Source: Squalus acanthias
Lineage: Eukaryota
Length of the DNA stretch: 64,000 nt
Reading direction: 5' to 3'
Assembly: GCA_030390025.1 (NCBI GenBank)
Contig: CM059437.1
Coordinates: forward strand, 17,112,001-17,176,000
This document shows positions 40,621-64,000 of the stretch, in pieces. Each line of letters starts with the position of its first letter. Position 1 is the stretch's first letter. The notes under the pieces were generated by a model. That model made no database searches, had not been told where the DNA came from, and worked only from the letters and a program-made list of their open reading frames with translations. A program made the position numbers and the translations under genes.

Positions 40621-41734
40621 ATAATGGACAAGGTTGTCAGTAAAACAATGCAACCGATATGTCTGCATATTTAATAATGACTGATAAATGATCATTACAT
40701 TTTAACTGCAACTTGCAATTGATATTTAACGCCTCCTACACAGCCGCCACCCTTGTATATGATCTGGCGACGTAAGTTAATTCTTTTGAATTATGCATTC
40801 GGAAAGTCTCCTTTTCCACCTGATTTTTACAGGTGCCAGTGCCGATTGAAACAGAAATGATTCAATAGAGGTCCAAGCTCTTTCTCGAGTGATTTGGTTT
40901 AGAGTTGTTGGGGAATTGCTGGAGTTATTAAAATTATCACTACAGAGGGCACAACCATTAATTACACCGTAGTCGGAATAACAGGGAAATGAATGTTGGT
41001 TTTGCCTCTGGTACCCCCGGCGCATCCTGCAAAACAGAGCAATTCTAAAAGTTCTCAACCTCTCTTTTCTCGTGGGCTTTGGGTTTCTCCGTGCAATAGA
41101 TTTAATACTACGGCGTATATTTTGCAACATGACACACACACACACACACATTCCCTTCAATTGTATCTAAGAGACCGCTGTTAGGATTTCGTCATGTCAT
41201 TTTAATTACTACCTAAGATATTTCCTAATGCAGCATGTCTATTACTCAGACTTATTTATTGCTAGCACCATTATGTACACAAGTGGAGAAAAATAACCGT
41301 GACTCACGAGCTTCCTTGTTGTAAATAGTATGGATTTATGCTCTGATTTGTAGCTAGGCACCGCGCGCTTGTATGCTTTATTAATATAAACCGCACGCGT
41401 ATTTACATTCTGTGGAGAGAATATGAGGGTCCTCACTATCCACCTATAGATGCGCAAACCAGTGCAACTATATCCAGGAATCGTATAAAATGGACCACCC
41501 GCGGATCTGTTTATATACAGATAGGACTGTATAAATACAATACCGAAAACTGTGTAGGAAACACATCTATTATAAGTTTTAAAACATGTACCGTATTAGC
41601 ACTGAAAGCAATTACATTCGTTGTTCCAGTAATATTCTTTGCTTTTCGGTGGTGGGGAAGCTTTTGGAAACAATAATCCGGGAGAAAATTAACAGCTGCA
41701 TGGACTAATAAAGGAGAGCCAGCGCGGATTTGTT

Positions 41735-41845
41735 AAGTGAAAGTCCTGTTTGACTAACTTGATTGAGTTTTTTTGATGAGTTAACAGAGAGGGTGGATGA
41801 GGGCAGTACAGTTGATGTTGTGTACATGGACTTTCAAAAGGCGAC
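41735..41845 (+). mobile_element. Short internal CR1 RT fragment
   Basis: Encodes SCLTNLIEFF...VDEGSTVDVVYMDFQKA, homologous to the ORF2 of the 55-59 kb element. Confidence 0.75.
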
Positions 41846-55075: not shown

Positions 55076-55426
55076 GCCCACATCCTTCTGATTCAGAGGT
55101 GAGAGAGCTACCATGAAGCCAAACAGACACAGTAAATCAATGAGAATGGATGCAGTGTGGAGCTTGTAATGGAACAATATATTCCCACTAATATGGAGAA
55201 CACGAATAATTCCTTTTTGAGATACATGGGAAGATGAAGCAGAATAATCCAGGATTAGCTTACGATCTCCAATGGCGCCACATTGAGTGTGTGTGAACGA
55301 GGAGGCTGGAGAATTTTGTCTTCTGCAGATACCATTTCAGATCTGGCCTTTATGTTTTTGCAGTAGTTTGCAGGGTTCCTTGCTGTATAACACATCTTGT
55401 TATTTTCCTTACTCAAGCCGGCATTA

Positions 55427-58400
55427 AGAACATAGAACATAGAACATAGAACAGTACAGCACAGTACAGGCCCTTCGGCCCTCGATGTTGTGCCGAGCAT
55501 TGTCCGAGACCAAGATCAAGCTATCACACTCCCTATCACTCTGGTGTGCTCCATGTGCTTATCCAATAACCGCTTGAAAGTTCCTAAAGTGTCCGACTCC
55601 ACTATCACAGCAGGCAGTCCATTCCACACCCCAACCACTCTCTGAGTAAAGAATCTACCTCGGACATCCCTTCTATATCTCCCCCCATGCATCTTATAGT
55701 TATGCCCCCTTGTAACAGCTGCCTCTACCCGAGGAAATAGTCTCTGAACATCCACTCTATCTATCCCCCTCATCATCTTATAAACCTCTATTAAGTCGCC
55801 TCTCATCCTCCTCCGCTCTAAAGAGAAAAGCCCCAACTCCCTCAATCTTTCCTCATAAGACCTCCCCCCCAAACCAGGCAGCATCCTGGTAAATCTCCTT
55901 TGCACTCTTTCCAATGCTTCCACGTCCTTCCTATAGTGAGGTGACCAGAACTGCACACAATATTCCAAATGTGGTCTCACCAAGGTCCTGTACAGTTGCA
56001 GCATAACCTCACGGTTCTTAAACTCAAACCCTCTGTTAATAAACGCCAACACACCATAGGCCTTCTTTACTGCTCTATCCACTTGAGTGGCAACCTTCAG
56101 AGATCTGTGGATATGAACCCCCAGATCCCTCTGCTCCTCCACATTCCTCAGAACCCTGCCGTTGACCCTGTAATCCTTATTCAAATTTGCCCTACCAAAA
56201 TGAATCACCTCGCACTTATCAGGGTTAAATTCCATCTGCCATTTTTCGGCCCAGCTCTGCATCCTATCAATGTCTCTTTGCAGCCTACAACAGCCCTCCA
56301 CCTCATCCACTACTCCACCAATCTTGGTGTCATCAGCAAATTTACTGATCCACCCTTCAGTCCCCTCCTCCAAGTTATTGATAAAAATCACAAACAGCAG
56401 AGGACCCAGCACCGACCCCTGTGGCACACCGCTGGTAACTGGTCTCCAGTCCGAAAATGTTCCATCCTCCACCACCCTCTGCCTTCTATGAGATAGCCAG
56501 TTACTTATCCAATCGGCCAAATTTCCCTCTATCCCACAACTCCTTACTTTCTTCATGAGACGACCATGGGGAACCTTATCAAACGCCTTACTAAAATCCA
56601 TGTATACGACATCAACTGCTCTACCTTCATCTACACACTTAGTTACCTCCTCAAAGAATTCAATCAAATTTGTTAGGCAAGACTTACCCTTCACGAATCC
56701 GTGTTGACTATCCCTGATTAAGTTGCCCCTTTCCAAATGGTCATAAATCCTATCCCTCAGGACCTTTTCCATTATCTTACCAACCACCGAAGTAAGACTA
56801 ACCGGCCTATAATTACCAGGGTCATTCCTATTTCCTTTCTTGAAGAGAGGAACAACATTCGCCACTCTCCAGTCCTCTGGCACCATCCCCGTGGACAGTG
56901 AGGACCCAAAGATCAAAGCCAGAGGCTCTGCAATCTCCTCCCTTGCCTCCCAAAGAATCCTAGGATATATCCCATCTGGCCCAGGGGACTTATCGACCCT
57001 CAGGTTCTTCAAAATTGCTAAAACATCTTCCCTCAGAACATCTACCACCTCCAGCCTATCCACCTTTATCACACTCTCATCCTCAAGAACATGGCCCCTC
57101 TCCTCGGTGAACACTGACGAAAAGTATTCATTCATCACCTCTCCTATCTCTTCTGACTCCATGCACAAGTTCCCACTACTGTCCTTGACCGGCCCTACCC
57201 TCACCCTGGTCATTCTTTTATTTCTCACATAAGAGTAAAAAGCCTTGGGGTTTTTCTTGATCCGACCCGCCAAGGACTTCTCATGCCCCCTCCTAGCTCT
57301 CCTAAGCTCTTTTTTTAGCTCATTCTTTGCTACCTTGTACCGCTCAATCGACCCAACTGAACCTTGTTTTCTCATCCTTACATACGCTTCCTTTTTCCTC
57401 TTGACTAGACATTCAACCTCTTTTGTGAACCATGGTTCTCTCACTCGGCCATTTCCTCCCTGCCCGACAGGGACATACCTATCAAGGACACGCAGTAATT
57501 GCTCCATGAAAAAGCTCCACTTTTCGTTTGTGCCTTTCCCTGATAGTTTCTGTTCCCATCTTATACTCCCTAATTCTTGCCTAATCGCATCATAATTACC
57601 CCTCCCCCAATTATAAACCCTGCCCTGCCGTATGGCCCTATCCCTCTCCATTGCAATAGTGAAAGTTACCGAATTGTGGTCACTATCTCCAAAGTGCTCT
57701 CCCACATACAAATCAAATACTTGGCCCGGTTCATTACCCAGTACCAAATCCAACGTGGCCCCACCTCTTGTCGGCCTATCCACATATTGTGTCAGGAAAC
57801 CCTCCTGCACACACTGTGCAAAAACTATCCCATCCGAACTGTTTGACCTATAAAGGTTCCAATCAATATTTGGAAAGTTGAAGTCACCCATGACAACTAC
57901 TCTGTGACCTCCACACCTATTCATAATCTGCTTTGCAATTTCTTCCTCCACATCTTTATTACTATTTGGGGGCCTGTAGAAAACTCCTAACAACGTGACC
58001 GCTCCTTTCCTATTTCTAACTTCAGCCCATATTACCTCAGACGGCAGATCCCCCTCGAACTGCCTTTCTGCCGCTGTTAAACTATCCTTGATTAACAATG
58101 CTACTCCTCCACCTTTCTTACCAACTTCCCTACTCTTACTGAAACATCTATACCCCGGAACTTCCAACAACCATTCCTGTCCCTGTTCTAACCATGTCTC
58201 CGTAATGGCCACCACATCGTAGTCCCAAGTACCAATCCACGCTCCAAGTTCTCCTACCTTATTCCGGATGCTCCTTGCATTGAAGTAGACACACTTCAAG
58301 CCATCTTCTTGTCTGCCGGTACATTCCTGCGACCTTGATACCCTCCTCAGTACCTCCCTACACTCACCACTGGCTCGTGGACTACAGCCCTTTTTCCCAT

Positions 58401-59207
58401 CCCCCTGACAAATTAGTTTAAACCCCCCCGAAGAGCCGTAGCAAATTTCCCTCCCAGGATATTGGTGCCCCTCTGGTTCAGGTGCAAACCGTCCTGTTTG
58501 TACAGGTCCCACCTTCCCCAGAATGTGCTCCAATTATCCACATAACTGAAACTCTCCCCCCTACACCATCCCTGCAGCCACGTGTTTATCTGCACTCTCT
58601 CCCTGTTCCTCAACTCGCTAGCACGTGGCACCGGCAACAAACCAGAAATTACAACATGGTTTGTACTGGCTCTCAGCTTCCAACCTAGCTCCCTAAATTC
58701 CTGTTTTAAATCCCCGTCCCTTCTCCTACCTATGTCGTTGGTACCGATGTGTACCACGACTTGTGATTGTTCCCCTTCCCCTTTGAGGATTCTGAAAACA
58801 CGGTCCGAGACGTCACGGACCCTGGCACCCGGGAGGCAACATACCATCCGTGAGTCTCTTTTGCTGCCACAGAACCTCCTATCTGTCCCTCTGACTATTG
58901 AGTCCCCAATAACTATTGCTCTCCTGCTCTCCCCCCTTCCCTTCTGAGCCACAGGGACCGACCCAGCGCCGGAGATCCGGTCACCGTGGCTTACCACTGG
59001 TAAGTCGTCCCCCTCAACAGTATTCAAAGCAGTATACCTGTTACTGAGGGGAACGACCACAGAGGATCCCTGCACTGACTGCTTCCTCCTAGCCCCTCTC
59101 ACCGTCACCCATCTATCTTCATGCTTTGGAGTAATTACATCCCTGAAGCTTCTATCTATGACCTCCTCTGCCTCCCGAATGATCCGAAGTTCATCCAGCT
59201 CCAGCTC
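55427..59207 (-). mobile_element. Young CR1-clade LINE, 5'-truncated within ORF1
   Basis: Uninterrupted ORF2 and ORF1 remnant, a short 3' UTR and a (TTCTATG)n tail at 55427-55452. Possible TSD CATTA at 55422-55426 and 59208-59212. Confidence 0.96.
55516..58533 (-). CDS. CR1 ORF2: AP endonuclease plus reverse transcriptase
   Basis: EN motifs YFNARSIRNK, AITETW, MGDFNFP and GDSDH; RT motifs PGPDGI, NYRPVSLTS, QHGF, DFSKAFDKV, GVPQGSVLGP and KFADD. No stops. The listed start is TTG, and the true entry point is probably near 58420. Confidence 0.95.
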   Translation of the reverse strand: MEHILGKVGPVQTGRFAPEPEGHQYPGREICYGSSGGFKLICQGDGKKGCSPRASGECREVLRRVSRSQECTGRQEDGLKCVYFNARSIRNKVGELGAWIGTWDYDVVAITETWLEQGQEWLLEVPGYRCFSKSREVGKKGGGVALLIKDSLTAAERQFEGDLPSEVIWAEVRNRKGAVTLLGVFYRPPNSNKDVEEEIAKQIMNRCGGHRVVVMGDFNFPNIDWNLYRSNSSDGIVFAQCVQEGFLTQYVDRPTRGGATLDLVLGNEPGQVFDLYVGEHFGDSDHNSVTFTIAMERDRAIRQGRVYNWGRGNYDAIRQELGSIRWEQKLSGKGTNEKWSFFMEQLLRVLDRYVPVGQGGNGRVREPWFTKEVECLVKRKKEAYVRMRKQGSVGSIERYKVAKNELKKELRRARRGHEKSLAGRIKKNPKAFYSYVRNKRMTRVRVGPVKDSSGNLCMESEEIGEVMNEYFSSVFTEERGHVLEDESVIKVDRLEVVDVLREDVLAILKNLRVDKSPGPDGIYPRILWEAREEIAEPLALIFGSSLSTGMVPEDWRVANVVPLFKKGNRNDPGNYRPVSLTSVVGKIMEKVLRDRIYDHLERGNLIRDSQHGFVKGKSCLTNLIEFFEEVTKCVDEGRAVDVVYMDFSKAFDKVPHGRLMKKVRSCGIEGNLADWISNWLSHRRQRVVEDGTFSDWRPVTSGVPQGSVLGPLLFVIFINNLEEGTEGWISKFADDTKIGGVVDEVEGCCRLQRDIDRMQSWAEKWQMEFNPDKCEVIHFGRANLNKDYRVNGRVLRNVEEQRDLGVHIHRSLKVATQVDRAVKKAYGVLAFINRGFEFKNREVMLQLYRTLVRPHLEYCVQFWSPHYRKDVEALERVQRRFTRMLPGLGGRSYEERLRELGLFSLERRRMRGDLIEVYKMMRGIDRVDVQRLFPRVEAAVTRGHNYKMHGGRYRRDVRGRFFTQRVVGVWNGLPAVIVESDTLGTFKRLLDKHMEHTRVIGSVIA

Positions 59208-59210
59208 CAT
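58413..59210 (-). CDS. CR1 ORF1 (SGNH esterase-like domain), N-terminally truncated
   Basis: IVIGDSIVRG, CCLPGARV, VHIGTND and DGLHLN are the SGNH blocks typical of vertebrate CR1 ORF1p. Confidence 0.9.
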   Translation of the reverse strand: MELELDELRIIREAEEVIDRSFRDVITPKHEDRWVTVRGARRKQSVQGSSVVVPLSNRYTALNTVEGDDLPVVSHGDRISGAGSVPVAQKGRGESRRAIVIGDSIVRGTDRRFCGSKRDSRMVCCLPGARVRDVSDRVFRILKGEGEQSQVVVHIGTNDIGRRRDGDLKQEFRELGWKLRASTNHVVISGLLPVPRASELRNRERVQINTWLQGWCRGESFSYVDNWSTFWGRWDLYKQDGLHLNQRGTNILGGKFATALRGGLN

Positions 59211-59934
59211 TAGTTTTTTAAAAAGCTTAACTATTAGCCCCTTTTCTGTATTTAAGCCTTCTAGTTCATTCTAAGAGGCTTTCAAATACTGGTCAAAGAA
59301 AAAGAAAACTTTTGCTTTTAAGTTTTGTGGCAGCCTGGGATATAACGCAAACAACAATGAAAGCAACAAAATGTCCCTTTCCCGAAATGCACTGATCTTA
59401 TTAGAGTGTTCAGTTTGAAAGCTGACAGTACAGACGTTTTGCATAATGAGGCTGGGTAATTTCTCATAGTGAATCCTCATACAACTGTGCTAATTTAAAT
59501 ATTTTGAACTTTTTTTGACAGAATGGTAGAGGAAACACACATAAGTGATATTAAAATCTAGTCTAAATGGAACAAAAGGGGTTTGATTTAAATTCCATGC
59601 AAATAAATGTCCTGCTGTTGCTGATGGGTAATATTTGCCAAATTCTAAACACAGGTTCATTATTCATCTATTCCAAAGTTGATTTTAAGTCAGTGTCACT
59701 AGTTTATAACTAAACGTGGATATTTTCAGGTGTTGAGGGATTCTGAGAATGGTTCTATCCAAAAATCAACTTAGATTTCTCTTTTGGATGTTGATCTTCT
59801 GTGCATTCCCAGCATTTTACTACATTTTGTTTATAGATATACAGGCAAAATGCAATGCAAACCTGTGAGATTGTATGTATCCTTTGTTTTACCCAGCTAC
59901 ATTTTAATGTATCATGTTAAACATACACGGTAAT

Positions 59935-63310: not shown

Positions 63311-63391
63311 CTCCTACTATGGAGACACGAGTCTAACAGAAATCGTTGGACATTCTGGCTGCTTTTAGATTTATAGAGGATTCCATTATTG

Positions 63392-64000
63392 TGCCCCAGG
63401 ACATCGCTGCAGGAGTTCCTCAGGGCAGTGTCCTAGGCCCAACCATCTTCAGCTGCTTCATCAATGACCTTCCCTCCAACATAAGGTCAGAAATGGGGAT
63501 GTTCGCTGATGACTGCACAGTGTTCAGCACCATTCACAACTCCTCAGATAATGAAGTAGTCCATGCTCGCATGCAACAAGACCTGAATGACATTCAGGCT
63601 TGGGCCGATAAGTGGCAGGTAACATTCGCGCCACAGAAGTGCCAGGCAATGACTATCTCCAACAAGCGAGAGTCTAATCACCTACCCTTGACATTCAATG
63701 GCATTACCATCGCCGAATCCCCCACCATCAACATCCTGGGGGTCACCATTGACCAGAAACTTAACTGGACCAGCCACATAAATACTGTGGCAACAAGAGC
63801 AGGTCAGAGGGGCAAGGTATTCTGCGGTGAGTGTCTCACCTCCTGACTCCCCAAAGCCTTTCCACCATCTACAAAGCACAAGTAAGGAGTGTGATGGAAT
63901 ACTCTCCACTTGCCTGGATGAGTGCAGCTCCAACAATACTCAAGAAGCTCGACACCATCCAGGACAAAGCAGCCCGCTTGATTGGCACCCCATCTACCAC
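63392..64000 (+). mobile_element. 5'-truncated CR1/L2-group LINE RT fragment, running off the window
   Basis: AGVPQGSVLGPTIFSCFINDL...MFADDCTVF...WADKWQVTFAPQKC...ILGVTIDQKLNW, with a frameshift near 63810. Confidence 0.9.

Follow-up and report, generated by a model that had tools for sequence, protein, structure and literature searches.

A 64-kb stretch of the Squalus acanthias genome (3.7 Gb), i.e., positions 17,112,001 to 17,176,000 of contig CM059437.1 (the whole stretch analyzed, hereafter "the window"), carries on its minus strand a long interspersed nuclear element (LINE) with two open reading frames (ORFs); ORF1 encodes an SGNH esterase and ORF2 an APE endonuclease (EN) and a reverse transcriptase (RT). 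We take this element to be a CR1, a dominant LINE among sharks, reptiles and birds, a label based on its anatomy and on the preliminary description of this DNA. The family of the window copy ("the window family") shows the features of an esterase-type CR1, i.e., the esterase ORF1, an ORF2 with APE-EN and RT, a tandem repeat at the 3' end and interspersed copies with varied 5' ends (1273 first-look candidates in the genome), and close relatives of its ORF1 come under shark and ray names. The element is also like the published SGNH-esterase CR1s (PMC3905857) in its esterase ORF1, APE-EN and RT ORF2, 3' microsatellite and 5' truncation. The subject of this analysis is the junction between ORF1 and ORF2, which is quite probably a site of programmed -1 ribosomal frameshifting (PRF) that would yield an esterase-EN-RT fusion of ~1,270 residues.

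At the end of ORF1 the minus strand reads GGT TTA AAC TAA, which places TTTAAAC (U_UUA_AAC in the RNA) in the X_XXY_YYZ phase directly before the stop codon, and the -1 frame is the open frame of ORF2; both points had been made in the preliminary description and are confirmed here. Counted from this heptamer, ORF2 spans 968 codons, and Pfam recognizes its EN and RT domains. The -1 frame as a whole is open from 58533 to 55516 (1005 codons), and the first EN motif precedes the first Met of ORF2, at 57924, by 121 residues. In the window family the G7 run preceding the heptamer creates a second, overlapping heptamer, G_GGU_UUA. The junction layout was identical in 30 of 30 window-family junctions. 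As these had been retrieved with a query that spans the site, a further 39 copies were chosen by 256 downstream bases alone; 38 of them carry the heptamer and the stop, and the remaining copy is 5'-truncated at the stop. The heptamer-stop layout thus belongs to the window family itself and does not represent one broken single frame.

Table 1. Features of the CR1 copy and its junction in the window
Feature	Position	Strand	Basis
CR1 LINE copy, young, 5'-truncated, (TTCTATG)n at 3' end	55427..59209	-	Homology, 3' microsatellite
ORF1 remnant, SGNH esterase domain at ~58913-58467	58413..59209	-	Pfam PF13472, E 1.4e-12
G7 run upstream of heptamer, not conserved, indel hot spot	58423..58429	-	Sequence
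Slippery heptamer U_UUA_AAC, ORF1 phase	58416..58422	-	Sequence, conservation
UAA stop of ORF1, adjoining heptamer	58413..58415	-	Sequence
Candidate stimulator, conserved G-tract G5-N2-G3, +11 to +20 after heptamer	58396..58405	-	Conservation
Variable linker, -1 frame open, without AUG in window family	58288..58412	-	Frame scan
ORF2, heptamer to stop, 968 codons	55516..58422	-	Open reading frame
APE endonuclease of ORF2	~58287-57676	-	Pfam PF03372, E 7e-22
RT of ORF2	~56835-56116	-	Pfam PF00078, E 8e-37
Likely 5-nt target-site duplication, 5' copy	59208..59212	-	Sequence
Likely 5-nt target-site duplication, 3' copy	55422..55426	-	Sequence

Sister copies are 98 - 100% identical and many of them continue past 59209, where homology with the window copy stops; the window copy is therefore young and 5'-truncated, and it lacks the first ~43 codons of ORF1. 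The intact ORF1 of sister copies encodes 308 amino acids, with N-terminal Cys motifs; an insertion in ORF1 was observed in sister copy L237 and a deletion of ~114 nucleotides (nt) in L238. The likely target-site duplication (59212-59208, minus strand) contributes an in-frame ATG to the truncated ORF1, and the resulting ORF of 265 codons terminates at the slippery site.

Conservation of the heptamer and of the -1 phase

Conservation of the heptamer-stop arrangement and of the -1 phase across CR1 families, which the preliminary description had named as the check on its proposal, was assessed in 192 junctions from protein searches of the S. acanthias genome and one metagenome contig (L035), after removal of three duplicate loci. 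Junctions were anchored on the DGLHL motif of ORF1, with the ORF1 tail excluded from the anchor, and include six copies hand-picked for long fused frames. TTTAAAC followed by a stop codon was found in 175 junctions, the heptamer only in four, and neither in 13; among the first 130 junctions, the misses trace to single changes or to one deletion, the copies being typical in other respects. The stop is TAA in 170 of the 179 heptamer-bearing junctions. All 12 family representatives (11 shark, one bird-type) carry both heptamer and stop (TAA in 10, TAG in two), and their ORF1 tails are as little as 24 - 29% identical (as compared to the bird type).

Within these 12 representatives, each a real copy, the Leu codon is TTA and the Asn codon AAC in every case, and a T precedes TTA in all of them, though the codon that it ends encodes Gly, Cys, Asp or Ala. 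As a control, the other invariant degenerate columns among the last 120 codons of ORF1 were considered; none of these 10 columns holds to one codon (the nearest does so in 11 of 12 representatives). Between distant families, codon identity is down to 19 - 50% at the residues that they share. Moreover, the last C of the heptamer is silent in both frames (AAC and AAT encode Asn, CTA and TTA encode Leu). As synonymous positions are fixed at the heptamer only, and as this last base is silent in both frames, these data place the constraint on the RNA.

The modal distances from the heptamer to the EN motif differ among families (104, 128, 143, 191, 194 and 200 nt), and every one of them preserves the -1 phase. 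Linkers of 10 representatives contain no stop codons when read in the -1 frame, as compared to 1 - 10 in the other frames; shuffled linkers are open in 0.3 - 22% of cases, a comparison that uses representatives chosen for open frames. Upstream of the heptamer, the -1 frame extends for 1 - 5 codons in most families and for 37 in the window family before it is closed; entry into ORF2 would hence have to occur at or just after the heptamer. Three features of canonical -1 PRF sites are hence present, i.e., an in-phase X_XXY_YYZ heptamer, a downstream ORF open in the -1 frame, and nucleotide conservation beyond coding need.

The signal is also visible at the protein level. A profile of the ORF1 tail built without the last residues matched 304 of 363 proteins. 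In two search sets, 58 of 80 and 70 of 80 tail-reaching proteins have a Leu-Asn end where it is expected; among the source names in these sets are those of rays, sharks, coelacanth, Xenopus, turtles, a snake and many birds. Five proteins read on through FKL, i.e., the -1 reading of the heptamer. In bird ORF1s, the Leu-Asn end has outlasted the catalytic His motif where the latter has decayed. Distant ORF1s with teleost names have other ends, and the signal is therefore bounded. A profile search found 70 more distant esterase ORF1s, of which 27 have as their last two residues a dipeptide encoded by a canonical heptamer (LN 16, GN 10, KN 1), against a background of 4.6%, a contrast with inflated significance, as many of the 70 rows are related. 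One coherent distant group ends Gln-Gly-Asn, as G_GGA_AAC followed by a stop would give, and in a second group Lys-Asn stands internally at the corresponding place (P0272, P0277, P0289, P0299 and relatives: a QGN end, an internal KN, or FF/GF plus one residue there). These protein ends hint that distant esterase ORF1s may use other slippery heptamers. Searches for the DNA of distant relatives gave one locus in a metagenome scan and two weak loci, without a junction, in prokaryote genomes; viral contigs gave nothing useful and plasmids no match.

Two proteins labelled as SGNH hydrolases of Pseudomonas aeruginosa (P0007) and Klebsiella pneumoniae (P0189) share 72% and 58% identity with the shark and bird-type ORF1 queries, respectively, and both end in LN; they are likely vertebrate contamination of bacterial assemblies.

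The downstream G-tract and the points against frameshifting

Downstream of the heptamer, G5-AT-G3 begins at 58405 after a 10-nt spacer. In an ungapped alignment of the 12 representatives, all 12 have G at +11, +12, +13 and +18, conservation ends beyond about +21, and only two G-runs are conserved. Position +11 is a third codon position of ORF2, and a need for a Gly-X-Gly peptide could conceivably account for the conserved tract. The G4Hunter score of the stretch from +8 falls at the 90th - 100th percentile in all 12 representatives, and a pattern of four G2 runs occurs in 8 of the 12 as compared to 11 - 41% in the background. Contigs of another organism, which represent related families, drop off at the same point, with a summed depth in run X9 of ~9,000 over 58394-58429 and of ~40 just past it, and among 40 listed variant rows from other-organism contigs (29 more exist) none falls within 58394-58425.

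The preliminary description had proposed that G-tracts 10 nt downstream form a stimulatory G-quadruplex or stem; their position and two of their runs proved to be conserved, but neither structure was recovered. Four G3 tracts are present in 1 of the 12 representatives (in 2 if loops of up to 12 nt are allowed), i.e., a conserved canonical G-quadruplex is absent, and neither a canonical four-tract G-quadruplex nor a stable stem was recovered in the window copy itself. Several further results weigh against programmed frameshifting. The consensus fold of the downstream region is empty, with no conserved hairpin; folds of 60 and 100 nt were no better than those of shuffled sequences, save 1 of 24; no Rfam match was found at the junction; folding without an explicit pseudoknot model did not reveal a 3' stem-loop or pseudoknot 5 - 9 nt downstream; and no long-range partner of the G-tract is common to all families, as the best duplex sites vary by family. 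In-frame AUG codons are present in 8 of 10 representative linkers, one of them 3 codons past the heptamer start; the absence of AUG before EN put forward in the preliminary description thus holds for the window copy and its family, for subfamily B128 and for one F200 copy, but not in general. With regard to sampling, the 12 representatives amount to about four deep lineages and were chosen for intact frames, the genome searches used ORF1 queries that included the tail, and only L035, with an ORF1 98% identical to a penguin protein, gives junction DNA from outside this genome. All evidence for frameshifting is comparative. As the evidence is comparative and the 3' structure was not found, the junction is not regarded as a full member of the canonical -1 PRF class.

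A conserved G-quadruplex or hairpin was accordingly dropped as a candidate stimulator. A duplex site near -650 was among the top five in 7 of 11 families, the window family not being one of them; this site lies on coding sequence.

Alternative routes to ORF2

One alternative is termination-reinitiation, in which ORF1 ends at UAA and ORF2 restarts nearby, at a linker AUG or, as has been put forward for L1, at a non-AUG codon, to give a separate ORF2 protein (ORF2p). As most representative linkers contain an in-frame AUG, this route is possible in the AUG-bearing families, and an open -1 linker would be equally expected with a restart near the stop; moreover, the start of L1 ORF2 is described as AUG-independent (PMC5009743) and SART1 uses UAAUG coupling (PMC2699510). 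The linker AUGs, however, are not conserved in position (codons 3, 7, 16, 18, 19, 22, 43 and 44), are about as frequent as in shuffled linkers (0.42 - 0.82) and are missing in three families. Neither a UAAUG or AUGA overlap nor, among the representatives, a conserved UGGGA 40 - 80 nt upstream, resembling a termination upstream ribosome-binding site, was found, and reinitiation leaves seven fixed bases of the X_XXY_YYZ form unexplained. On balance we consider this route unlikely. Alternatively, the heptamer could be kept for protein reasons, i.e., the C-terminal Leu-Asn of the ORF1 protein (ORF1p), or as an RNA signal unrelated to a change of frame. While Leu-Asn is nearly invariant at the protein level, the codon control confines the fixation of synonymous positions to the heptamer, the dipeptide stays where the esterase motif has decayed, and the ends of distant ORF1s, G-N or K-N, are themselves encoded by other canonical heptamers; as ORF2 would still be left without an entry route, this explanation appears highly improbable.

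Splicing, by which a CUAAY branch point and a CAG/G acceptor at +10 would join an upstream AUG exon to ORF2, would draw on the AG found at +10 in 8 of 12 representatives and on the resemblance of the junction to the branch point consensus. One family, however, has no AG in +1 to +32 and others have AG in another phase, the pyrimidine fraction is 0.29 - 0.53, and the distance from branch point to AG (7 - 8 nt) is shorter than is generally usual. None of the 39 copies chosen by downstream sequence is joined at that AG and no joints were detected in contigs of three RNA-like runs, which leaves splicing with a very slight chance. Polymerase slippage on the upstream G-run, which would supply some templates with ORF1 and ORF2 in frame, is the kind of event seen in subfamily B128, where a G8 run has gained one extra base, placing the ORFs in frame, in 8 of 29 unselected copies, and one genomic copy has a fused frame of 1290 codons. 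Still, the G-run is missing in most families, G8 occurs in only 1 of 39 window-family copies, the fused copies form no clade, and the heptamer is left unexplained; we thus give slippage hardly any credence as the route to ORF2.

Run lengths in B128 (L128 G000:C10, L129 G000:C1; L244-L273) were G8 in 13, 9 nt in nine and 10 nt in three of 30 copies including the query, with five unmatched, and the order G8 > G9 > G10 fits repeated slippage. The idea that fused-frame copies represent a replicating sublineage was rejected, as an 11-row tree contained no such clade.

Proposed mechanism and comparison with known systems

Programmed -1 frameshifting, as proposed in the preliminary description, passed the conservation test and appears to be the best explanation of the junction, with a change in the proposed stimulator. 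The majority of ribosomes would terminate at UAA and release ORF1p. A minority would pause, either with UUA and AAC in the P and A sites or with UAA in the A site, re-pair on UUU and AAA and read CUA in place of the stop; either pausing route would give a ...G-L-N-L-I-C... trans-frame product. Counted from the stop codon, the G-tract is 7 nt away, which would agree with slippage while the stop occupies the A site. We give about even odds to a pause that results from slow termination aided by the unstructured G-tract, with a bound protein as a more likely agent than a four-tract quadruplex or fold-back stem. The ratio of ORF1p to fusion would set particle stoichiometry, as does Gag:Gag-Pol. As no protease domain was found, the fusion would remain uncleaved.

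On mammalian ribosomes, few heptamers are as prone to shifting as U_UUA_AAC (PMC5009743), and -1 frameshifting for ORF2 would not be unprecedented among LINEs, as it is stated for Dictyostelium TRE5-A and TRE3-A in a figure legend of a review (PMC5911963). These are APE-type non-LTR elements like CR1 but are amoebal, target tRNA genes and have an ORF1 of unknown function. For Paramecium LINEs, +1 shifting or reinitiation has been suggested (PMC5405496). L1, SART1 and Zorro3 reach ORF2 by initiation routes, for which Zorro3 needs an AUG (PMC5009743, PMC2699510, PMC1965478); they share a bicistronic RNA with CR1, but their ORFs are non-overlapping or of the stop-start type and yield ORF2p as a separate protein, unlike CR1, in which the ORFs overlap in the -1 frame at the slippery site. 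No report on recoding or on the route of ORF2 translation in CR1 was found in the searchable literature, which lacks most subscription papers. The chicken and turtle CR1 papers of 1997 reportedly describe closely spaced or short overlapping ORFs and may already suggest frameshifting. In the accessible text, the term "CR1" is absent from a review of frameshifting (PMC5009743) and "frameshift" from the esterase structure paper (PMC3905857), and PMC4255032 mentions frameshifts as mutational only.

With the infectious bronchitis virus-type coronavirus site and with gag-pol, CR1 has in common the heptamer, the phase, a downstream ORF in the -1 frame and a predicted fusion of structural protein and polymerase. 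Unlike viral -1 PRF sites, CR1 has a stop directly after the heptamer and an unstructured G-tract at 10 nt, without a pseudoknot or stem at 5 - 9 nt. Spacers measure 5 - 9 nt for structural stimulators and 11 - 14 nt for the arterivirus and cardiovirus sites, and no natural quadruplex-driven frameshift was known to the 2016 review (PMC5009743). The arterivirus (nsp1beta/PCBP) and cardiovirus sites resemble CR1 by analogy only, in that a short sequence on the 3' side is conserved and the spacer is longer; the CR1 motif is G-rich, unlike these protein-stimulated sites, and a trans-acting factor in CR1 is hypothetical.

If CR1 does frameshift, the ORF1 esterase would sit on the N-terminus of the CR1 enzyme, unlike the separate ORF2p of L1; annotation of CR1 ORF2 would change, as calls that start from an AUG truncate the endonuclease; CR1 assays would be designed differently; and a frameshift site without a fold-back stimulator would be added to those known. 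As the putative signal is short and fixed, the route of ORF2 translation in CR1 could be tested with one reporter cassette. A wider generalization, which is possible though doubtful, is that esterase LINEs across jawed vertebrates and beyond share Gag-Pol-like -1 recoding with heptamer switching at one and the same place (U_UUA_AAC and, in distant groups, probably G_GGA_AAC and A_AAA_AAC), in which a stop, together with an unstructured G-tract that a trans-acting protein reads, would drive the slip and constitute a new class of stimulator and the product would be an uncleaved esterase-endonuclease-RT.

Elsewhere in the window, older RT-related fragments, 31 - 52% identical to ORF2, are present at 40620-40283 (minus strand), 41646-41843 (plus strand) and 63367-63801 (plus strand). 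A G-rich stretch upstream of the CR1 (60330-59930, minus strand) resembles the antisense 3' end of another LINE.

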